Part shown: in pieces, positions 2,459 to 37,059 of the stretch
Layout: each line of letters opens with the position of its first letter
Numbering within the stretch: position 1 is the first letter of the stretch
Sequence record: NC_054927.1
From: Escherichia phage vB_EcoM_Ozark
Strand: one strand, 5' to 3'
DNA: 64,000 bases
Notes under the pieces: model-generated
Told to the model about the DNA's origin: nothing
Seen by the model: the letters and a program-made list of their open reading frames with translations, nothing else
Database searches by the model: none
Position numbers and translations under genes: made by a program

Positions 2459-4278
2459 TACTGGCTCATCCATTCTTTGCGAAGGTCAGCATTATCTCCC
2501 ATGAGCATTTCAAAAAGCTCTTTCCAGTTCTCAGGAAGTTTAACAACATCATATACTGGATTTTGAATCATCTCACGATATTCAGATTTTTCCAAAGAGC
2601 CAAGTCCTTTAATATAACGGATGCTATGTTTAGGTAGAGCATCTTTGGCACTCTCATATTCAGCGACTGTATAAAACCATTCTTGTTTTTTACCGACCTG
2701 AGCGATGATTACAGGAGTTTTGACAAAGCGAATTCGTCCTTGCTCAAACAGTTCTGGCCAATTACTAAAAAATCCAAGAAGAGAAGGATAAATGCTTCCT
2801 AGACCATCATGGTCAGCATCAGTCATAATAGCAATATTATGATAATTCAAGTTTTCAGCTTTTTCACCAAGAACTAATCCAGTGATTGCGCAAATATCAA
2901 ATAGTTCTTTGTTTTTAAGCATATCAGCATATGACATACCCCAACTGTTGAGAACTTTACCACGCAATGGATAACCACCATGAAGTTCTTTATCACGAAC
3001 ATCAATAAGATATCCGATAGCAGAATCACCCTCAGTCAAGAAAAGAGTAGTATCAGCATCTTTACCGCAAAGATTCGCTTTGATATGTTTATGAACTTTA
3101 GCTTTAGAAGCCTTTTTAGCTGCTTTAGTTTCAGCTGCTTTTTCTGCTGCCAATTTACGAGCTAGTGCAGCTTCAATAATTGGCATCAGAATTGCTTCAT
3201 TATTTAGAATAGCGCGTGAAATCTTTTTAGCGTCAAGTTGAATATGACTACGGATTTCACCAAATGGAGAAGTCAAACGCTCTTTAGTTTGAGAATCAAA
3301 TCGCATGTTTTTCATATCACGGACAAACATAACGATAGTCAAACATTCTTTGACACGTGCTTTAGTTACATCAATTTTGAACTTACGTTTGATTTGTGGA
3401 ATAAGGTCTTCACAAATATCATCCATAACACAGTCAATGTGATGGCCACCATTCTTAGTGTGAATGTTATTCACATAAGTTAATTGGCGAAATCCATCCG
3501 GTGAACGACCAACCGCAATAGAACAATTTTCTTGTTCTTGAACAATAGCATGTTCATCATACTGTCGTGCATATTTCTTAAAATTGCCCTGAACCTTTTT
3601 ACCATTAAAGGTAAATTGAATATCAGGATAAACTACTGCAAGTGTCTGGAGACGATCCAGTGTAATGTCAAGATAAACTTGGGACAGCTCATTAGTTTCA
3701 AATGACATAAAATCTGGAATGAAAGTAACACGAGTTCCTTTCCATTTTCCAGGAATAGTTTCCCAGGATTTATTTTCCATGCCATTTGAACAACGAACTA
3801 CAATATTATTTTGACCATCGCCAGTTTCACCGACAAACATCACAGAAAAAATGTTAGTTAAACTAGAACCAACACCATTCATACCACCGGTGACACGTTC
3901 TTTATCATCACCAAAGTTACCACCCGCTTTTGGAATAGTCCAAGCAGCAACTGGACCAGGAATTTCTTCACCGGTAGGTGTTTTAACCATCGCTTGTGGA
4001 ATACCACGACCGTTATCTTCAACTGTTACTTGATTGTTTTTGATAGTAACATTAATTTTATTTGCGAATTTAAACTTAGTACGAATACCTTCATCTACTG
4101 AGTTATCGATAATTTCATCAATAAGCTTAACAAGACCAGGTACATACTGAACACTTTCCCATTTACCAAACAGAAAGCGCTCATGCATTTCATTAGCAGA
4201 AGAGCCAATATACATGCCGCTACGCTTTTTGATATGTTCAATATCGCTCAGAATTTTAATTTCATTCTTAATCATCAC
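2458..4278 (-). CDS. 39: DNA topoisomerase II large (GyrB-like ATPase) subunit, gene 39 fused with gene 60 region (606 aa)
   Basis: GHKL ATPase and TOPRIM-like motifs; continuous 606-aa ORF as in T2-type phages, no mobA or split gene 60. Confidence 0.9.
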   Translation of the reverse strand: MMIKNEIKILSDIEHIKKRSGMYIGSSANEMHERFLFGKWESVQYVPGLVKLIDEIIDNSVDEGIRTKFKFANKINVTIKNNQVTVEDNGRGIPQAMVKTPTGEEIPGPVAAWTIPKAGGNFGDDKERVTGGMNGVGSSLTNIFSVMFVGETGDGQNNIVVRCSNGMENKSWETIPGKWKGTRVTFIPDFMSFETNELSQVYLDITLDRLQTLAVVYPDIQFTFNGKKVQGNFKKYARQYDEHAIVQEQENCSIAVGRSPDGFRQLTYVNNIHTKNGGHHIDCVMDDICEDLIPQIKRKFKIDVTKARVKECLTIVMFVRDMKNMRFDSQTKERLTSPFGEIRSHIQLDAKKISRAILNNEAILMPIIEAALARKLAAEKAAETKAAKKASKAKVHKHIKANLCGKDADTTLFLTEGDSAIGYLIDVRDKELHGGYPLRGKVLNSWGMSYADMLKNKELFDICAITGLVLGEKAENLNYHNIAIMTDADHDGLGSIYPSLLGFFSNWPELFEQGRIRFVKTPVIIAQVGKKQEWFYTVAEYESAKDALPKHSIRYIKGLGSLEKSEYREMIQNPVYDVVKLPENWKELFEMLMGDNADLRKEWMSQ

Positions 4279-4614: not shown

Positions 4615-4982
4615 TTAAATTTAATGGCTTGAAGGAGACTAATAATTCTTAAACGGCTTCTTTCATCTTTAACTGTAAAAGAAAGAGGGTCGCCAGATTT
4701 CATAGTAATAGTGCATTCAAAATCAAAATCTTCTGTGACTTCTTCGAAGAAGTCAAATTCTTCATCATAAATTAGAACACTACTTTGCAGACTGTGGAGA
4801 GTTTTTCCAGCATTTCCAGATGCTGTACCAATCATTGTAACATTATGACCTTTCATATCTTCAACGATAAATTCGTTTGTCAATATTACAGCATTAATAG
4901 AACTATTCCTATTACTAACAGAAAGTAGAAATTTCTGTTCTTCACCTTCACGAATACGATATTTCTTACCAATTTTAAACAT
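4611..4982 (-). CDS. hypothetical protein (123 aa)
   Basis: ORF, ATGA overlap with downstream gene. Confidence 0.45.
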   Translation of the reverse strand: MFKIGKKYRIREGEEQKFLLSVSNRNSSINAVILTNEFIVEDMKGHNVTMIGTASGNAGKTLHSLQSSVLIYDEEFDFFEEVTEDFDFECTITMKSGDPLSFTVKDERSRLRIISLLQAIKFK

Positions 4983-19839: not shown

Positions 19840-19869
19840 ACTATACCATAGTCTTGTCAGCTTGTAAAC
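19840..19869 (-). promoter_or_regulatory. T4 early-type promoter upstream of dmd (GTTTAC / TATAGT)
   Basis: fwd gtaaac 19864-19869. Confidence 0.5.
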
Positions 19870-21296
19870 TAAAATTTTAATTCATTCGCCAAAGCATCTA
19901 ACTGAGCTCGAGTAGATTCATTTCTTTGATAGCGATTCTGTTCAGCCTGAATCTGTTGTGAACCTGCTACTTCACTCACTTCAGTTGGAGTAGAATCTTG
20001 TTCAATTTCTACCCATTTTTGATTTCCTTTTTGAACACCCATCAAAAACTTATTCCACTTATTCTTATCACCATATCGTGATTTGATTTGCTTAATAAGT
20101 TGTTGTTCAGCAGCTGCTAGCTCCTCGGTTTCAATGACCGCAAGCATAAAATCAGCTGTTGCTGGAAGACCGGCAGATTCTGCAATATCGCTCATGTTAA
20201 CATCAGAAGAGTCCCAAGCTTGTTTACCAACCTGCGCTGCAGTCCAAAGAACAGTTTCGGTTTCAACAGCAAGAGCACGCAATTCCTCTGCAATAGCTTT
20301 AACAGTTGTGTAACTATTTTCTGAATAAACTCTAATGCGGCAAGATTTACAAATACCTAGATAGTCGACAATAATGATTGTTGGAACAAAATTCTTTTTG
20401 AGCTTCAATTCATTCAAGAGAGACCTGAATGTGTTAGCATCTGCTCCACCAGTAGGATACTGTTTAACAATTAAACGACCGAGAGTAGATTTCTCACGCC
20501 ATTTTTCCATTTTTCCTTTATACTCAGCGTAAGAAATATGTCCATCATCAATGTCATCAAGAGAAACATCAAGCATATTAGCGTCAATACGCTTAGCACA
20601 GACTTCTTCTGCCATTTCCATGGAAATGTAAAGAACATTATGTCCGAGCTGTAAATAATCTGCTGCCAATGAACACAGACCTAATGACTTACCAACGTTA
20701 ACGCCAGCCATTAAAACGTTCAGCGTTCCAGTCTCAGCTCCGCCTTTAGTAATTTTGTTTAGAATTCTGAGTTTAAATGGAACCTTACGAGCTTTATTCA
20801 TATAAGATAGCCAGCGTGCTTCGTAGTCATCCATCCAATCATGACCAACGTAGCTATCAAATGAAATTGATAATGCTTGGCGCATGATGTCAGGAATAGC
20901 ACCAACATCCGGCATTTTCTTATTTCGTTTTTCCGGAGGAAGCTCAGCATTAGTTTGAATTTCGATTATTTTAGACGTAGCATTAAACATCGCCCTTTGC
21001 TGAACATATTTTTCTGTTTCTTTTATTAACCAACTGTGGTCTTCCGGAGAATCAGCCAGTTTTGAAATAAGTGTTTTTACACCAGAATATTCTGTTTCAG
21101 TAAATGAACTATTTTCTAATGCAACATTTAACGCATTAATAGATGGAACGCTATGGTACTCATTAACATGAGATTTAATTAATTTGAATGTATTTTTAGC
21201 TGGACCACTTTCAAAATATTCTGAATCCATATATGGCCAAACTTTTGAAAAATAAGCTTGATCAAATATGAGATGAGAAAGAATAATTTCTACCAC
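19869..21296 (-). CDS. 41: replicative DNA helicase (DnaB-like), gene 41, 475 aa
   Basis: Walker A GVNVGKS; 475 aa as T4 gp41. Confidence 0.95.
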   Translation of the reverse strand: MVEIILSHLIFDQAYFSKVWPYMDSEYFESGPAKNTFKLIKSHVNEYHSVPSINALNVALENSSFTETEYSGVKTLISKLADSPEDHSWLIKETEKYVQQRAMFNATSKIIEIQTNAELPPEKRNKKMPDVGAIPDIMRQALSISFDSYVGHDWMDDYEARWLSYMNKARKVPFKLRILNKITKGGAETGTLNVLMAGVNVGKSLGLCSLAADYLQLGHNVLYISMEMAEEVCAKRIDANMLDVSLDDIDDGHISYAEYKGKMEKWREKSTLGRLIVKQYPTGGADANTFRSLLNELKLKKNFVPTIIIVDYLGICKSCRIRVYSENSYTTVKAIAEELRALAVETETVLWTAAQVGKQAWDSSDVNMSDIAESAGLPATADFMLAVIETEELAAAEQQLIKQIKSRYGDKNKWNKFLMGVQKGNQKWVEIEQDSTPTEVSEVAGSQQIQAEQNRYQRNESTRAQLDALANELKF

Positions 21297-21305
21297 ACTT
21301 ACTCC

Positions 21306-21668
21306 TTAAAAGAATTTAAATTTTTTCTTTGACCTTTTATTAAATGCATCTTGCAGTTGCATTGTAATACATTTTTCTACATGAGGAGCTAACTCAGCTT
21401 TTCTTTCTTGGTCAAGAACAGCAAAGTCCATTACAACCTTTCCATCAACCCAATCCAGTTTAGTTACATACACTATATGTGTAGAACCATCTTCTAGTTT
21501 AATGACAATCTCCTGGATAACATTTTCCATAGCGGATTTAATTATCTTAAGAGACTCATTAAAAAGACGTTCTTTTCTTTCTTCTTCCCCCTCCGAAGAG
21601 GGGGATTCATCGATAATTTCTAGATCTAAATCTAAATCATCTTTATTCATTAAATTCTTCCATATCAC
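21306..21668 (-). CDS. 40: gene 40-like protein (head vertex assembly), about 114-120 aa
   Basis: position between uvsX and 41; start may be the internal Met. Confidence 0.55.
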   Translation of the reverse strand: MIWKNLMNKDDLDLDLEIIDESPSSEGEEERKERLFNESLKIIKSAMENVIQEIVIKLEDGSTHIVYVTKLDWVDGKVVMDFAVLDQERKAELAPHVEKCITMQLQDAFNKRSKKKFKFF

Positions 21669-22824
21669 TTAACTGTTCGAGGTCAGTTTCTAAATCAGCA
21701 GCTGATTTACTTTTACTTTCTGGAGATTTAAATTTTTCAACCTTTGAGTTAATCAATTCATCAACTTCAGCTTCAACAATTTCATTACTATCAATAGCAC
21801 CTAACTGATAAGCACGTTTAATAGCATCTCGGAATGGTTGATGCTTAAATAAAGGACCCCAGAATGTAGTGCAGTTGGTATCTTTTGCACGCCAAGATTT
21901 TTCTTCGCGAATCATCTCGCCGGTTTCTTCATCAAGAAATTCACGAGCATACCAACCATTTTTAGGTTTTACAACAAATCCTAATTCTAGAGCCATATCT
22001 AACAATCCAGAATAAGGATCGATACCACCGTCAAATTTAACATCAATAAAGAATTTACTTTTTTCTTTAACGGTACGAGATTTTTCTACATTTAGAACAA
22101 ATTGATACCCCTGAAGATCAGAACCATCTTTAATCTGGCGTTTACCGATAATGAATACGGTATCAGCCGAATACATTACACCTGTACCACCTGTCATCAC
22201 GGTTTTACTAAACATTTCAATTGTTTCAATTGTATGGTTAACCGCAACGCATGGAATATTTTTAATGCTAAAGTAAGGAGTAACAATACGGAATAACGAC
22301 TTCAGTGATTTAGCACGAGTCATATCTGCCACAGATTTTTCATTTAAGGCATCTTCCGTTTCTTTCTTAGAAGCCATATTACCAATTGAGTCGATGAATA
22401 CAATAACCTTTTCACCGCGCTCAATAGCTTCAAGCTGATTCACCATATCAATTTTCAGTTGTTCAACTGACTGGATTGGTGTATGAATTACTCGTTCCGG
22501 GTCAACTCCCATGGATCGCAAATAAGCTGGAGTAATACCAAATTCGCTATCATAAAATAGACAAACCGCGTCAGGATATTTGTTCAAATATGCCGCAACC
22601 ATAGTCAAAGACATATTTGATTTAAAGTGTTTAGAAGGCCCTGCGAAAATAGTTAAACCAGACTGCATACCGCCATCAATCGCACCGGAAATAGCGATAT
22701 TAAGCATTGGAATTTTTGTACGGATTACATCCTTTTCATTAAAGAATTTAGATGTAGTCAGTTCAGCAGTCATTTTAGAAGTGGAAGCTTTAATCAAACG
22801 GGATTTTAAATCTGCAATAGACAT
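21643..22824 (-). CDS. uvsX: UvsX recombinase (RecA-like), 393 aa
   Basis: RecA fold motifs, C-terminal acidic tail. Confidence 0.95.
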   Translation of the reverse strand: MSIADLKSRLIKASTSKMTAELTTSKFFNEKDVIRTKIPMLNIAISGAIDGGMQSGLTIFAGPSKHFKSNMSLTMVAAYLNKYPDAVCLFYDSEFGITPAYLRSMGVDPERVIHTPIQSVEQLKIDMVNQLEAIERGEKVIVFIDSIGNMASKKETEDALNEKSVADMTRAKSLKSLFRIVTPYFSIKNIPCVAVNHTIETIEMFSKTVMTGGTGVMYSADTVFIIGKRQIKDGSDLQGYQFVLNVEKSRTVKEKSKFFIDVKFDGGIDPYSGLLDMALELGFVVKPKNGWYAREFLDEETGEMIREEKSWRAKDTNCTTFWGPLFKHQPFRDAIKRAYQLGAIDSNEIVEAEVDELINSKVEKFKSPESKSKSAADLETDLEQLSDMEEFNE

Positions 22825-22901
22825 TCATTTTTTCCATAGGCATCATTATATTTTCCTCACTGGTTAAAGATAGAGTAATTATAACACAATAAATTTAGGC
22901 A

Positions 22902-23750
22902 TTAATCAACTGCTATTGGATGAATAGCATTAAACTTGTGAAATGCTTCTGATTTTTCTTTACGCGAAACACACATGCGAAGAACCTTTAATGGCTCGTC
23001 TTCTTCACCCAACGATTTTCGTTTTTCAATATTCGATGTTTTCCAACGAGCTTGCTCTGGAAACTCTTTATTGATTTGCTCAAGCGCTCTATTATGTTTA
23101 GAATTACTACGAATTGAACTACACCCGCCAGGAGCTTGTGCTTTTCCAGATACAACCAGATATTTGAACAAAGCCAAATGCGGATAACCTTGATTAATTA
23201 AATTGAGAAATGCATACATATCTTCGCACAAATCAATTTTTCCATACCCAATTTGTTCTGTCGTAAGTTTTCCAAGGTCATACCATGTATTCGTGAATCC
23301 ATATGAATTTTCACGATAATTACCCCAAGATGAAGTAATTTTAAAAATTGGTAGACGAGCATGGCCATGATAATACCCGCAATCCATGGCATCTTCAACG
23401 TATTGAATCAATTCATAGAACTGTTCACGAGTCAATTGATTGACTTTATCTACGCAACGACGATCATCTCTTTTTCGCATTGAACTCATACGAATAGTAG
23501 TATCATCGTCAATCATCCAGATTCGTTGACCTGCATACATATCAGTAATTGCTTTACGAGTACCGGCAATTCCGTTTACATCATCAGGAATAGTTATAAT
23601 TTTAGCTCTAGACCCATAGGCGTCATAATAAGCTTTTTCTTCATGTTCACGTACTACGATATGAGGTTCATAATCAGTCGGAAACATATCAAGGGCAGAA
23701 ACTGCCCCTACACGTTGATAGCTCGGAATTACGAATTGAATCATTTCCAC
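22902..23750 (-). CDS. GT-A-like glycosyltransferase (DxD motif WMIDDD) at the beta-gt locus; candidate DNA glucosyltransferase, 282 aa
   Basis: DDD motif; sits between uvsX and gene 42 where T4 has beta-gt. Confidence 0.45.
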   Translation of the reverse strand: MEMIQFVIPSYQRVGAVSALDMFPTDYEPHIVVREHEEKAYYDAYGSRAKIITIPDDVNGIAGTRKAITDMYAGQRIWMIDDDTTIRMSSMRKRDDRRCVDKVNQLTREQFYELIQYVEDAMDCGYYHGHARLPIFKITSSWGNYRENSYGFTNTWYDLGKLTTEQIGYGKIDLCEDMYAFLNLINQGYPHLALFKYLVVSGKAQAPGGCSSIRSNSKHNRALEQINKEFPEQARWKTSNIEKRKSLGEEDEPLKVLRMCVSRKEKSEAFHKFNAIHPIAVD

Positions 23751-24481
23751 TCACCGTTATAATCTTTTTTCACAATATGAGTTTCGCCAGTATTCCACCA
23801 ATGATCAACCAAGTAAAAATGACGAGAATATACATGAAGACTTCCAACATTCCATATAATAGAACCTGCTTTATACTGACGAGTTGAATCGCCTGCATTC
23901 AAATCAGATACTAATTTATCTAATACGTATTTTTGCCATGCATAATCATTACGGAATCCGAAGACCACGTCATTTGAGCGCATGCTTACTACTGCATTGA
24001 CTTTCTTGTCACGAATCAGATACTGTACGGTATTCGTACACATGAAATCTGACATACCATCTTTATTATAGTCAAACTGCATAGATGGACGAGTATAAAT
24101 CATGATACCACGTCGAGAATCAGGATTTTGACCAAGTTCAGCTAAACACATATCATACTGGGCATAGTTATCTTCTGACCAAATAGCCCAACCATAATTC
24201 GAGTTAATTTCGCCTTTAGAAGATGCTACCTGCTGCCAAATCTTTGGTGTTTCACCTGGAATATCTTTAACAAACAAGCTCTTAGATTTATACCATTCAA
24301 GTTCACGCTGAATGTATTCATCATTAAGAGCGCCAAAAATAAACGGTTCATCTGCTACAAATGATGCGCCAATAATTTCAATAGTTTTAACACCGGTTTT
24401 ATCAACTACGAAATCTTTTTCTTTTAATGCAAGCCCCAAACGAAGACGGATTTCTTCAACTGTCATAGAGTCACTAATCAT
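23741..24481 (-). CDS. 42: dCMP hydroxymethylase, gene 42 (246 aa)
   Basis: thymidylate-synthase-like fold; 246 aa as T4 gp42. Confidence 0.9.
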   Translation of the reverse strand: MISDSMTVEEIRLRLGLALKEKDFVVDKTGVKTIEIIGASFVADEPFIFGALNDEYIQRELEWYKSKSLFVKDIPGETPKIWQQVASSKGEINSNYGWAIWSEDNYAQYDMCLAELGQNPDSRRGIMIYTRPSMQFDYNKDGMSDFMCTNTVQYLIRDKKVNAVVSMRSNDVVFGFRNDYAWQKYVLDKLVSDLNAGDSTRQYKAGSIIWNVGSLHVYSRHFYLVDHWWNTGETHIVKKDYNGEWK

Positions 24482-24488
24482 TTAAACC

Positions 24489-24638
24489 TCAATTGATACA
24501 TTCATATTTAACTTGTAACAGTAATAAGCTCCAACCTAAAATAATAGTTGGAATCATAAGAGGAACCGTTACACTATAGTATATACTTATTATAATCATC
24601 AAGATTAAAAGCAACACTGTTATAATTTTGCTTTTCAT
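24489..24638 (-). CDS. small hydrophobic peptide (49 aa), not in ORF track
   Basis: hand translation MKSKIITVLLLILMIIISIYYSVTVPLMIPTIILGWSLLLLQVKYECIN; ATGA overlap with imm stop. Confidence 0.35.
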   Translation of the reverse strand: MKSKIITVLLLILMIIISIYYSVTVPLMIPTIILGWSLLLLQVKYECIN

Positions 24639-24886
24639 TCCTTCTCTCTGATGATAATTACCTGATTTGGTTGTGCAGACTTTTTAGTTTCACCCGCAAT
24701 TGACCAAATAAATGTAATAAACCAACCAATAATTGACCAGTTAAACAGTAAAGATGTGAAAAAGATTCCTACTGTCGATTTTGACCCACGCATCAAGGCG
24801 ATAAACCATGGAAGCATGTATATAATAATAGCCAACACACCTGAAACTAAAACCATAAAAATTGAACCTGCTACTAAAGTTTCCAT
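24635..24886 (-). CDS. imm: Imm immunity (superinfection exclusion) membrane protein, 83 aa
   Basis: 83-aa two-TM protein upstream of gene 42. Confidence 0.7.
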   Translation of the reverse strand: METLVAGSIFMVLVSGVLAIIIYMLPWFIALMRGSKSTVGIFFTSLLFNWSIIGWFITFIWSIAGETKKSAQPNQVIIIREKE

Positions 24887-24893
24887 GTTTTCC

Positions 24894-25274
24894 TCACTTA
24901 GTCAAATTTTTTACACATGAATTATAAGAATTCACTACATACTCCATCGGAGCATTTTTACCAGTACGCCATTGATAATTATTAGCCCAATTAGCCCAAA
25001 TTTCGGCGCAGTAATTTTCAATTTTTTCTTCGCGTGTAATTACATCCGAATTACGATATGCTTGAGCAGATTCATCTGGACGAATAGCTTCGTCAAAATT
25101 CGCCTGCATTTGTTCTACTGTTTGCTTTGGAGCTTCTTTATAACACTTGACATTAGGATTATAAAATTTGCTTGAACAGTTTACAATTTTTCCTACATCA
25201 GACTGATTTACTACTGGTCCTTGAGCTACACAACCAGTAAGACCTAATGCAATAACCAAAATAGCGATTTTCAT
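24894..25274 (-). CDS. predicted lipoprotein (126 aa)
   Basis: signal peptide with LTGC lipobox. Confidence 0.5.
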   Translation of the reverse strand: MKIAILVIALGLTGCVAQGPVVNQSDVGKIVNCSSKFYNPNVKCYKEAPKQTVEQMQANFDEAIRPDESAQAYRNSDVITREEKIENYCAEIWANWANNYQWRTGKNAPMEYVVNSYNSCVKNLTK

Positions 25275-25286
25275 AATAATTTCCTC

Positions 25287-25538
25287 TTAAAACTTAACAA
25301 ATAACTTTAAAGCATCTTCAGTTTTAATTCCTTTTCTTACACCCATAACAGAAATTGGCTGTGACTGAAATTTTCCTTTACCATTATAAATTTCTAATCC
25401 AGTAACCATTCCATTTTGTTCTATAATACCGTAAGTGTTACCTTCATTTTCAAATTCTTTAACTTTAAAGAGTTTATTAGCTTTTTCTGCGTTAACAACT
25501 TTTAAATTTTGAATAAAATTAGTTTGAATATTTTTCAT
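25287..25538 (-). CDS. hypothetical protein (84 aa)
   Basis: start moved to ATG 25538 (GGAGGA RBS); the upstream part of the track ORF covers the promoter. Confidence 0.45.
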   Translation of the reverse strand: MKNIQTNFIQNLKVVNAEKANKLFKVKEFENEGNTYGIIEQNGMVTGLEIYNGKGKFQSQPISVMGVRKGIKTEDALKLFVKF

Positions 25539-25566
25539 TTTGTGTTCCTCCGTAGTTGATAGTTGT

Positions 25567-25596
25567 ATAGTACCATGGAAGAACAGGGATGTAAAC
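25567..25596 (-). promoter_or_regulatory. T4 early-type promoter with A/T-rich UP element
   Basis: fwd gtaaac 25591-25596, -10 TACTAT; same 40-nt leader as at 51898-51937. Confidence 0.55.
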
Positions 25597-25684
25597 AGTT
25601 TTGTGAAAAAATTTTTTAATGAATTCAAAGGGTCCAGAATCATCTGTTTTTCATAAGTATAGATTTATATTACTTGTATGAAAA

Positions 25685-25714: not shown

Positions 25715-28411
25715 TCAGCCAAACAGGAAGTCTAACGAAGCTTTTTCTTCATAGTCCATACCAGCCGATTCGCACATGCCTGCAAGCGGTTTAACAAACG
25801 ATTTTTGGAACAAAGTTGAGTAGTCAATCCAAGATAGTACATCAGAACGAATTTCTTTTGGAAGTTCTGTACCCGACGGCCAAGCAATGCACTTATCACC
25901 AAATGGATTTCCTTCACGCAATGGAAGAACCATTACCTTATTTCCATCCAAAATTGGAGCTACACCTAAACCGCTAACAGCTCGACGATAAGTTAGCACA
26001 CCACGAATATGGAACGGGCATTTAAATCCTGGCCAACCTTTATCATCATATTTCGCTATATCGTTCGCAGTTTTTACTTCAGCAATAACTTTATAGTCAA
26101 GTTGACGATATTCTTTCTCGAAGTTCTTGTAATATTCTTGGACAGACTCTTCACCTTCCTGAAGAATGCGACGAATACTTTCTTCGAGAGCTTCTTGTAC
26201 TGCTTTTGGTGTTGAACTCTGTTGAGTTTCCATACCCATGATTTTTAGATGCGGTTCAGCAAATCGCTTATCTTCCATATCATAAACGTTTAGAGCATAA
26301 CGCTTTTTCGCTTTCCAAAATCCACCAACGCCCTTTGAACCAAGCGGAGGACAAGAAATAGCTTCACGGTCCATATGCATCAGATGCTCGCGGTTATTCA
26401 TATAATCACATAACTCACGATATGCAACATCAATCATAGGTTCCATCTTTTTCTTACCGAACTGATTCATGAATTCAACTAAATCGTTCTGCTCTTTGAA
26501 TCGGTCAAGACCAACTTTTTCAATAACTTTATCTACGCAAACATATACCGAATCAGTATCACCTGCCGCGATGAAATCTTCACCATTAGTTCCGCATACT
26601 TTATTCAGATATTCATTAATTTTACGAGCAATCCACTGAATCCCAACTTGGCCGAAAATTGTGATAGCAGTAGCATTTCGCAAATCATAGTAACGGAAAT
26701 GAATATTACCAAGAGCACCGTAAAGACTGTTAATAAGAATTTTACGGTTCAGCTGATTTGTGTTAGCAAGTGTAGCCGCTTTTTCACATTCTTCAATCAG
26801 ACTATTGAGAACAGATTCGGTGTAATTCGACAGTTCATTTAAAAAATCATCAGTGAACTTAACATATCGTTCAACTTCTGGTTTAGTTGAACAAGACCCT
26901 GCGCCTTTCATAATAATCTTTTTAATAGCTTCGGCATTCATTTCTTCAGCGAACATTTTCTTTTTCCAATCTTTACGCTGGAAAAATACTTTAGCGATTT
27001 CCTTTGGAATGATACCTTCTTGATGCTTATCATACATCCATCCATTCGGAGAACAAGAATATTCTTCACTTGGCTTAGGAGCTGTTCCTGCAATATATTC
27101 ATGAATTGGATGAACTTTAAACTGACCACGAATAGTCTCAGGACTAATGTTAACCTGACGAATAATGCTAGGATACAGAGACGTTAAGTCAAAACTCATA
27201 ATGTATCGACGAGCAATTGGTTTAGGTTCAAACACAAATGCACCCGGAAAACTCTGTTTAACATGCGAACCTTGTTGAGGAATAACCTTATGTTCACCTT
27301 TCAATGAGTTAAAAATAATAGCATCCCAAGTTTTAATAGGACTCATTACACCAGAAAAAGGCATTTTAGCGTAATAAGACATACTTAAAACTAGATCGAT
27401 AAACCCGCGAATTTTATCAATTGCTTGAACTGATTCTACGTCAATGATGTTATAACTAATGTATCGTTGATGATTAGTCTCACGAAGTTTATTAATAGGA
27501 CCGTCGTATGGTAATTTACCTTTTTTGGTTTCATGTTGAGCAACTGATTCCAAAGAGAATGACGGCAAATTAGTAAATGCGAATTTCTTGTACAAATCTA
27601 AATAATCAAGAATAGATACGCCATCAATAGAATAAATTTCTTTGCTACCGTACATATTTTGAATTAGTTTAGATTTTACTCGACCGATTGGAGAGAAGCG
27701 TTTCATACTGCGTTCACCTAGAATCATTTTAACACGATTCATGATATACGGAACGTCAAATCCCTCAATATTCCAACCAGTAAAAATAGCAGGTCGTTTC
27801 TGTTCCCAGAGATTGATATATTCCATGAGCATATCACGCTCATTATCGAATGGCATATAAATTACTCGGTCAAGAATTTCTTGAGGAACTTCATCACCAC
27901 CTTCACAGTCAAGCTTAGCAGCTAACTTTGCATCCCATTTTGATACTGAACCATACATTGAATTCAAAAGGTCGAAAACATAAAAACGATCGTCAATTGA
28001 ATCATAATGAGTGATAGCATCAATTTCATATTCTGCTTTCATTGGGTCAGGAAATTTATCACCAGTAACCTCAATGTCACAGTTAGCTACACGAACAAAT
28101 TTTCGGTCATAAACAATTTCTGAACCATACGTATCACTGATATAAGCGAGTTTAAAATCGTTCATACCGAGAGCTTCGAGACCGATGTCTTCCATTCGTT
28201 TCATCCAATCTCGAGCATCTTTCATTGATGGAAATTTTTGAGGAGCGCAGTTTTTACCATAGATGTCTTTGTACTTTGACTCTTCCTTACAATGCCTAAA
28301 CATAGTCGGAAGATATTCTACTTCACGAGTACGTTCCTTTCCGTTTTCATCAATATAACGTTCAACAATGTTATTTCCGACTGTTTCAATAGAGATATAA
28401 AATTCTTTCAT
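25715..28411 (-). CDS. 43: DNA polymerase (family B), gene 43, 898 aa
   Basis: exo and pol motifs; 898 aa as T4 gp43. Confidence 0.97.
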   Translation of the reverse strand: MKEFYISIETVGNNIVERYIDENGKERTREVEYLPTMFRHCKEESKYKDIYGKNCAPQKFPSMKDARDWMKRMEDIGLEALGMNDFKLAYISDTYGSEIVYDRKFVRVANCDIEVTGDKFPDPMKAEYEIDAITHYDSIDDRFYVFDLLNSMYGSVSKWDAKLAAKLDCEGGDEVPQEILDRVIYMPFDNERDMLMEYINLWEQKRPAIFTGWNIEGFDVPYIMNRVKMILGERSMKRFSPIGRVKSKLIQNMYGSKEIYSIDGVSILDYLDLYKKFAFTNLPSFSLESVAQHETKKGKLPYDGPINKLRETNHQRYISYNIIDVESVQAIDKIRGFIDLVLSMSYYAKMPFSGVMSPIKTWDAIIFNSLKGEHKVIPQQGSHVKQSFPGAFVFEPKPIARRYIMSFDLTSLYPSIIRQVNISPETIRGQFKVHPIHEYIAGTAPKPSEEYSCSPNGWMYDKHQEGIIPKEIAKVFFQRKDWKKKMFAEEMNAEAIKKIIMKGAGSCSTKPEVERYVKFTDDFLNELSNYTESVLNSLIEECEKAATLANTNQLNRKILINSLYGALGNIHFRYYDLRNATAITIFGQVGIQWIARKINEYLNKVCGTNGEDFIAAGDTDSVYVCVDKVIEKVGLDRFKEQNDLVEFMNQFGKKKMEPMIDVAYRELCDYMNNREHLMHMDREAISCPPLGSKGVGGFWKAKKRYALNVYDMEDKRFAEPHLKIMGMETQQSSTPKAVQEALEESIRRILQEGEESVQEYYKNFEKEYRQLDYKVIAEVKTANDIAKYDDKGWPGFKCPFHIRGVLTYRRAVSGLGVAPILDGNKVMVLPLREGNPFGDKCIAWPSGTELPKEIRSDVLSWIDYSTLFQKSFVKPLAGMCESAGMDYEEKASLDFLFG

Positions 28412-35840: not shown

Positions 35841-35858
35841 AAAGGGCCGAAGCCCTTT
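35841..35858 (-). terminator. GC stem-loop with UUCG loop overlapping alpha-gt stop
   Basis: AAAGGGC-UUCG-GCCCUUU; near-identical 30-nt module at 4316-4348. Confidence 0.5.
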
Positions 35859-37059
35859 ATTTTGTAATAATGTCAAACTGTTCTTTAAAGCAGAAGCTTG
35901 AATCTTGATGCTGATACAAAAATTCATAAGCTTTTTCGCGTTCGCGGTCATAAAGAGTTCGGTCAGATGACAGTTCTTTAATACGTTCAAATGTTGATTC
36001 CATGTCATTTTCATCAAACCAAATGATACCGCTATCATGCGAGGTCAAAGGAGTATTATCAACACGGAATTTTAAATTTTCGCCAGTAGATTTCCAAAAT
36101 ACCGGAATTGTTCCACATGCACCAAGCTCGAGATGAGTATATTCTAAAGAACGTTGTAGATATTTTTTATCCAACTTACTCAACTGATAACCAAAACCGG
36201 ATTTACTCATACGTTCAAGCATTTCGCTATTTACATAACGGTCAAGAATTTGCGTTGGCAAATTAGGAGCAATTTTAATTTGGTCTACTTGATGAAGACG
36301 ATAATACTCGTATGGAATTCCTTTTTCTTTAATAGGAATGAACGCTGGAGAACGTTCCAGACCTTCCATAATAGTACTTAGTCCTGCAGGTTTAAGATGT
36401 TTTTCATGAAAATCAAACATCTGATAAAAACCTTTCCATGTAGTCGTACGACCAATCCAACGGTTGATATTCATGTTAATTTCAGAAACATCTTTCCAGT
36501 AGGTTGACCGAACCTTCGCAATATCCATAGGAGGCTGAAAGTTATATACTGTCGGTGCTTCTTCAATATCATCAAACAGAGAAACTGTTTCAGGATACCA
36601 TTCTTTCATCAGAACTTTATTAAAATCACCATTATCAGAATGGCTAAAAATAACATCAGCTCGACGAACAGTTTCTTCTAATCCCAAATTTCGGCGCAAA
36701 GAAAGAGAAGAATGGTCATGTTGATAAACTACAACACGAACAGAAGGTTTAATGTTATCAATAATTTTTTTATAGTTATTAATAGTGTCTTCTTCAACTG
36801 AAGTAGCAGGAACTGAATTTATAATTAGAATATCACAATCATTTACCAGTTTAAGTGTTTTATCGTATTCTTTTGCCAATAAAACCGGAATTGAAAATGA
36901 TTTATAATCATGTGCACAGTTACGAGTAAATGATTTATCTTTAGCATAAACCAAAGTTACTTCATGACCATTTTTAATAAACCAATCACGTTGCTCAAGA
37001 GAAAATTTAGTTACACCGCAACCTTCAAGACCTCGAGCCATAAAAATACATACTTTCAT
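35857..37059 (-). CDS. agt: DNA alpha-glucosyltransferase (400 aa)
   Basis: 400 aa, MKVCIFMARGLEGCGVTKF start as recalled for T4 alpha-gt. Confidence 0.9.
   Translation of the reverse strand: MKVCIFMARGLEGCGVTKFSLEQRDWFIKNGHEVTLVYAKDKSFTRNCAHDYKSFSIPVLLAKEYDKTLKLVNDCDILIINSVPATSVEEDTINNYKKIIDNIKPSVRVVVYQHDHSSLSLRRNLGLEETVRRADVIFSHSDNGDFNKVLMKEWYPETVSLFDDIEEAPTVYNFQPPMDIAKVRSTYWKDVSEINMNINRWIGRTTTWKGFYQMFDFHEKHLKPAGLSTIMEGLERSPAFIPIKEKGIPYEYYRLHQVDQIKIAPNLPTQILDRYVNSEMLERMSKSGFGYQLSKLDKKYLQRSLEYTHLELGACGTIPVFWKSTGENLKFRVDNTPLTSHDSGIIWFDENDMESTFERIKELSSDRTLYDREREKAYEFLYQHQDSSFCFKEQFDIITK

Follow-up and report, generated by a model that had tools for sequence, protein, structure and literature searches.

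Between uvsX and gene 42, phage T4 carries segA and the 351-aa beta-glucosyltransferase (b-gt). In Escherichia phage vB_EcoM_Ozark (sequence record NC_054927.1; hereafter Ozark) the same place is taken by a minus-strand reading frame of a different kind, which raises the question of which sugar transferase it encodes and what that enzyme would do to the DNA of the phage. [quoted passage not shown] Here we follow up that proposal within the whole stretch of Ozark DNA analysed (the window; 64,000 nucleotides) and against related phage genomes, protein families and published measurements of phage DNA.

Position, start codon and expression of the gene

The placement of the gene between uvsX and gene 42, where T4 has segA and b-gt, is borne out by the open reading frame (ORF) map and by comparison with T4, and the order 41, 40, uvsX, ba-gt, 42, imm, 43 is common to Ozark, T2 and T6 (Table 1). 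The earlier note was also right that alpha-gt is intact. Of its 282-aa protein the ORF stands (22902..23750, minus strand, read from GTG 23750 in the ORF map) and the length does not. The two additional codons of the GTG reading fall within gene 42. We rejected that reading because the ATG at 23744 overlaps the stop codon of gene 42 as ATGA (23741..23744, minus strand), because the spacing of the GGTGAG upstream of it is that of a Shine-Dalgarno-like element, and because an 843-nt coding sequence (CDS) is annotated from the equivalent ATG in T2, EH2 and RB14. The true start is thus almost certainly ATG 23744, giving a product of 280 aa whose numbering is used below.

The ATGA overlap suggests translational coupling, by which ba-gt would be read together with gene 42. 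In a sigma-70 promoter scan of the locus the consensus was matched 17 times where 9.9 matches were expected. No match was convincing for ba-gt, whose transcription appears to be by read-through from gene 42.

Table 1. Features of the ba-gt locus and of its partner gene alpha-gt in the Ozark window
Feature	Position	Strand	Basis or remark
gene 41	19869..21296	-	ORF map
gene 40	21306..21668	-	ORF map
uvsX, 393 aa, downstream flank of ba-gt	21643..22824	-	Pfam T4_UVSX_C and RecA
ba-gt (ggt / TAGT) CDS, 280 aa and stop	22902..23744	-	sequence, DNA and protein identity, family models
Glu174-Asp175 'ED' motif, about 95 residues past DxD, candidate catalytic base	23220..23225	-	conservation, GT2 analogy
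Asp79-Asp80-Asp81 (GAC GAT GAT), DxD metal/nucleotide-sugar motif of the GT-A fold	23502..23510	-	sequence and conservation
Arg11 codon (CGT), N-terminal IPSYxR motif	23712..23714	-	family-invariant
gene 42, dCMP hydroxymethylase, 246 aa	23741..24481	-	PF00303 (thymidylate-synthase family); T2/T4/T6 orthologue annotation
GGTGAG, Shine-Dalgarno-like	23750..23755	-	5 nt upstream of ATG 23744, read from sequence
imm	24635..24886	-	Pfam Imm
gene 43	25715..28411	-	ORF map
alpha-gt, DNA alpha-glucosyltransferase, 400 aa, intact	35857..37059	-	PF11440, E 4.3e-237, positions 1-354 of 355

Identity of the gene

Copies of the gene with at least 90% DNA identity are carried by 473 phage records (megablast), including T2 (98.0%), RB14 (98.5%) and EH2 (within 98.0-98.5%). 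The hosts of the matching records are mostly Escherichia, Shigella and Yersinia, and the named top matches are Tequatrovirus. Many of the 473 records label the gene beta-glucosyl-HMC-alpha-glucosyltransferase and some label it 'beta-glucosyltransferase'. The surroundings of ba-gt place Ozark among the T-even phages, with 24 kb that are 96-98% identical to many Tequatrovirus genomes such as teqhal, AV120, NR1 and RB51.

The protein matches the family models and proteins of the T2/T6 ba-gt over its full length. PHROG 842, a family of the same name, was matched at E 1.4e-89 (positions 3-269 of 270), and Pfam PF20691 (TAGT, 'TET-associated glycosyltransferase') at 38.9 bits, above the curated cutoff of 27.5 (E 1.2e-9, positions 2-205 of 205); the NCBIfam models gave no match for either ba-gt or alpha-gt. 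In pairwise comparison 277 of the 280 residues are shared with T2, the differences being R11H, K226R and P251S (Ozark to T2), and 279 with both EH2 and RB14, where K226R is the sole change. Lys226 is also found in the cluster representative P0001, which covers 485 member sequences. The gene further takes the slot of the T4 segA and b-gt genes between uvsX and gene 42, shares its genome with intact genes for a dCMP hydroxymethylase and a DNA alpha-glucosyltransferase, and encodes R11, D79-D80-D81, D175, G186, G206-G207 and R212.

We therefore consider it very probable that the ORF at 22902..23744 encodes the T-even beta-glucosyl-HMC-alpha-glucosyltransferase (ba-gt, also called ggt or TAGT), whose product would be gentiobiosyl-hmC. 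The agreement with PHROG 842, with Pfam TAGT and with 473 phage records puts this assignment, made from sequence, far beyond chance. The gene is already known and common, and it is characterised genetically and biochemically in close relatives; Winkler and Rüger reportedly cloned the T2 and T6 ba-gt genes in a 1993 Nucleic Acids Research note. For the Ozark enzyme, a beta-1,6 transfer of glucose from UDP-glucose to alpha-glucosyl-hmC is the predicted activity, supported by way of these near-identical genes. The T2/T6-like transferase that the earlier note gave as its example is thus upheld by the protein identities and the T2/T6 gene order, and also by the DNA of EH2, which contains alpha-gentiobiosyl-hmC and no beta-glucosyl-hmC (PMC13390438); its other option, another transferase, went unsupported, the gene being the ba-gt of T2 and T6.

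Fold and conserved residues

Searched with a profile, a set of 1.84 billion representative proteins yielded 2147 family members at E <=0.001, and conservation was read from an alignment of 123 diverse representatives of these, with 17-64% identity to the Ozark protein. Only R11, D80, D175, G186 and G207 are invariant in all 123, and D79, D81, R63 and R212 are conserved in at least 90%. By count, the DxD aspartates are present in 121 (D79), 123 (D80) and at least 121 (D81) of the 123 sequences, while D175 is found in 123 and its neighbor E174 in 95. The Ozark protein keeps all of the invariant and near-invariant residues of the family.

The GT-A reading of the earlier note, which had pointed to a DxD motif in WMIDDD, proved sound. 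The motif is present at residues 76-81 and, in an AlphaFold2 model built from ten homologues, comes right after the strand E74-78, as expected of a DxD at the end of a beta-strand; a metal-binding role is predicted for it from the motif. The model is of moderate confidence (pLDDT 69.9, pTM 0.72), with residues 1-80 scoring 84-95 and residues 126-151, 203-211 and the C-terminal tail modeled poorly. It predicts a single Rossmann-like nucleotide-sugar-binding domain and has structural matches to solved GT-A enzymes. A sequence search of the PDB with the Ozark protein returned chance matches only (E at least 1.5) and no solved family member; since no member of the family has a solved structure, the fold is assigned from the predicted model and the roles given to residues are analogies. 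The assignment agrees with the description of the T6 TAGT as a GT-A fold in a sister group to GT2 (PMC13216743).

By analogy, D79-D80-D81 would hold a divalent metal and the UDP pyrophosphate, Arg11 in the IPSYxR loop would contact the nucleotide-sugar, and Asp175 is the likely catalytic base, activating the 6-OH of the acceptor glucose. The E174-D175 pair appears similar to the ED motif that provides the catalytic base in inverting GT2 enzymes, and the beta-1,6 linkage in gentiobiose agrees with an enzyme that inverts UDP-alpha-glucose.

Predicted modification of Ozark DNA

In the proposed pathway, gp42 would make hydroxymethyl-dCMP, which is incorporated instead of cytosine, and alpha-gt would then place an alpha-linked glucose on about three quarters of the hmC. 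The alpha-glucosyl-hmC so formed would be the substrate of ba-gt, a GT-A enzyme predicted to be inverting and to use UDP-glucose as donor, which would join another glucose to the first by a beta-1,6 bond and yield gentiobiosyl-hmC. About a quarter to a third of the hmC would stay unglucosylated, because the acceptor of ba-gt is the glucose of alpha-glucosyl-hmC and not bare hmC. For Ozark virion DNA we accordingly predict no beta-monoglucosyl-hmC, some 25-35% bare hmC and a remainder that is mostly gentiobiosyl-hmC, that is, the pattern of T6 and EH2 and not that of T2.

Measurements by HPLC/MS are available for phages of the Durham collection, including EH2 and NR1, in which about one third of the base is 5-hmdC and about two thirds alpha-gentiobiosyl-mdC, with alpha-glucosyl-mdC as a trace only and the beta-glucosyl form absent; in these phages TAGT lies at a position syntenic with the T4 beta-GT (PMC13390438). 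The EH2 enzyme is one residue away from that of Ozark, and NR1 is among the closest listed matches to the 24-kb surroundings. The Durham phage groups differ among themselves, at 1:2:2 and about 1:0:2. T2 and T6 are without b-gt, and the extent of gentiobiosylation is 5% in T2 and 72% in T6 (PMC13390438; bioRxiv 10.64898/2026.02.25.707755). Since near-identical enzymes differ so greatly in this extent, a quantitative pattern is unsafe to read from sequence. T6 without ba-gt has alpha-glucosyl-hmC only and shows increased sensitivity to Brig1, and the deletion also turns its DNA into a substrate of BapA (PMC11078745; bioRxiv 10.64898/2026.02.25.707755).

The main value of the present result lies in a correct annotation and in the phenotype that it predicts, in which gentiobiosyl-hmC, some bare hmC and no beta-glucosyl-hmC would be expected. 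In relatives with this pattern the disaccharide shields virion DNA from the alpha-glucosyl-hmC glycosylase Brig1 in vitro and the glucosyl hydrolase BapA cannot take off the gentiobiosyl sugar, and the DNA is still open to 5hmC-specific defences (Brig3) and to restriction enzymes of the GmrSD/BrxU type. What is known of T-even DNA modification is unchanged by the Ozark gene.

Residue 11 and variant alleles

All three T2 records that were translated encode His11 (CAT, from CGT; 4037..4039 in T2 locus L001, and also in L007 and L008). An exact match to T2 over the opening 64 nt of the CDS (ATG to codon 21, which takes in codon 11) was found in only 8 records of the phage collection, of which seven bear the name T2 and one SV76; the next tier differs by one base. 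The R11H allele of T2 may thus be hypomorphic, which would answer the old question of why T2, although it has the same gene, reaches 5% against the 72% of T6. We offer this tentatively, as an idea that deserves attention and could well prove wrong; in the papers examined, His11 was not found stated as the cause of the low gentiobiosylation of T2. If the idea is true, Ozark with its Arg11 would be a high-gentiobiose phage, and the glycosylation pattern of T-even DNA could be predicted simply from the residue at position 11. It is because Ozark has Arg11 that a T6/EH2-like pattern is predicted for it.

Two T6 records have apparent lesions in ba-gt. In MH550421 (L002 4138..4980) there is a TAG at codon 10 and the CDS is annotated from Met20, giving 261 aa; in AP018814 (L004 1031..1870) codon 10 is intact and one Asp of the near-invariant DDD is missing, giving 279 aa. 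Defective alleles therefore exist in the records, and these lesions may reflect divergence among laboratory stocks or errors in sequencing.

Alternative readings

Three other explanations of the gene were weighed, all of them very unlikely because its product is identical at 279 of 280 residues to the enzyme of a phage with measured gentiobiosyl-hmC. The one that survives best grants family membership and takes the Ozark gene for a weak or inactive allele, or for one that makes another linkage or transfers another sugar, so that the DNA would be essentially alpha-monoglucosylated, like that of T2, or differently decorated. The spread between T2 and T6 shows that near-identical enzymes can yield very different extents, damaged copies are on record for laboratory T6 stocks (MH550421 with its TAG at codon 10, AP018814 with DD for DDD), and the possibility of two kinds of TAGT has been raised (PMC13216743). 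We nevertheless judge this very improbable, given that the Ozark ORF is full length and has all of the invariant residues, including the Arg11 that T2 lacks, and that the DNA of EH2, with its almost identical enzyme, is about two thirds gentiobiosylated. Only one residue separates the two enzymes, K226 in place of R226; this conservative exchange falls in none of the conserved motifs and is shared by the P0001 cluster.

The genomic slot shared with T4 b-gt, together with the 'beta-glucosyltransferase' label of the orthologue in some GenBank records, would also suit a functional analogue of that enzyme, one that adds a single beta-glucose directly to the bare hmC left by alpha-gt. This is extremely unlikely. 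The BLASTP comparison proposed in the earlier note gave no similarity to T4 b-gt (best E 2.2) beside the 277 of 280 residues shared with T2, PF09198, the family of T4 b-gt, found no match in the Ozark protein, and the two differ in fold class, GT-A against GT-B. Close relatives with ba-gt show no detectable beta-glucosyl-hmC and keep about one third of their hmC bare (PMC13390438), and deletion of ba-gt in T6 removes the second glucose and not the first (PMC11078745; bioRxiv 10.64898/2026.02.25.707755). We also considered, and rejected, a b-gt or segA gene elsewhere: neither lies in the 64 kb, because tblastn over the window with T4 b-gt (best E 1.4) and with T4 SegA found nothing, and there is no segA between uvsX and ba-gt. 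A similar tblastn search of the window for a second TAGT copy found none, the best other match (E 0.017, 70 aa, 4725..4913) being judged a chance one.

Just as remote is a transferase that stands among DNA-metabolism genes by accident and modifies not DNA but, for instance, a phage protein or a glycan of the host envelope, since deletion of the near-identical T2/T6 gene alters DNA glucosylation (PMC11078745; bioRxiv 10.64898/2026.02.25.707755), the ATGA overlap points to co-translation with gp42, and it is the association with DNA base-modification genes that defines the family (Pfam TAGT; PMC13216743). The T-even ba-gt thus stays the preferred reading.

Other elements of the locus

Within codons 10-21 of ba-gt, about 30 nt past the start, lies a GC-rich hairpin of about 15 bp (23683..23716, minus strand; core GGGGCAG-UUU-CUGCCCU) followed by a U-rich stretch; its 81-nt context has a minimum free energy of -24.7 kcal/mol (z -2.9). 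The hairpin is conserved in T2 and T6, the base change of the T2 R11H codon sits in its stem, and in the GenBank record of phage DalCa a 'terminator' is annotated among the first 64 nt of ba-gt. It might serve in the attenuation of transcription or translation coming from gene 42.

In the intergenic stretch that separates ba-gt from uvsX (22825..22901, minus strand) TGCCTAAA followed by TGTTATAAT can be picked out by eye, and together they look like a putative T4 middle-mode promoter (MotA box and extended -10) for uvsX.

The gap between imm and gene 42 is filled by a very hydrophobic 49-aa ORF, MKSKIITVLLLILMIIISIYYSVTVPLMIPTIILGWSLLLLQVKYECIN (24489..24638, minus strand), whose start codon and the stop codon of imm share an ATGA. 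T4 and T2 both have the ORF intact, changed by conservative substitutions only. It is unannotated in the T4, T2 and T6 records examined and has no Pfam match; it may be an overlooked gene for a small membrane protein. Another ORF, of 118 aa (25287..25643, minus strand), lies between imm.1 (24894..25274) and gene 43; in the equivalent position T2 annotates a shorter hypothetical protein of 83 aa (L001 2213..2464), and T4 and T6 annotate nothing there.

Comparison with known systems

T4 b-gt (PF09198) shares with Ozark ba-gt its slot, with gene 42 upstream and uvsX downstream, its UDP-glucose donor and beta bond, and its part in completing the hmC glycosylation started by alpha-gt. The sequences, however, are unrelated, the fold of T4 b-gt is GT-B whereas that of Ozark ba-gt is predicted to be GT-A, and the acceptor is bare hmC for the T4 enzyme but the glucose of alpha-glucosyl-hmC for ba-gt. 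T4 also has the homing endonuclease gene segA at the locus, which Ozark lacks.

Cellular inverting GT-A enzymes of the GT2 type, such as TarP, TarS and the catalytic domains of cellulose and chondroitin synthases, have only 7-17% identity to the Ozark protein, in which the Pfam GT2 model found no match. Unlike theirs, the acceptor of ba-gt is a sugar on duplex DNA, and its C-terminal part (about residues 195-280, with a GGCS.xR motif) is specific to the ba-gt family.

With the ba-gt of T2 and T6 the Ozark gene shares the position between uvsX and gene 42, the ATGA overlap, the alpha-gt partner and the conserved motifs, and it is set apart by point differences only. Residue 11 is Arg in Ozark, T6, EH2, RB14 and the whole family but His in T2, residue 226 is Lys in Ozark but Arg in T2, T6 and EH2, and residue 251 is Pro in Ozark but Ser in T2; both T6 lesions, the TAG at codon 10 (MH550421) and the loss of one Asp (AP018814), are absent from Ozark. 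The pairing of alpha-GT with beta-GT as in T4 is rare (6 among 753 phage genomes that encode glucosyltransferases), and alpha-GT with TAGT is the common Tequatrovirus arrangement (PMC13216743). The gene that Ozark has at the beta-gt locus is thus the ordinary one for T4-like phages, and the T4 reference arrangement is the rare one.
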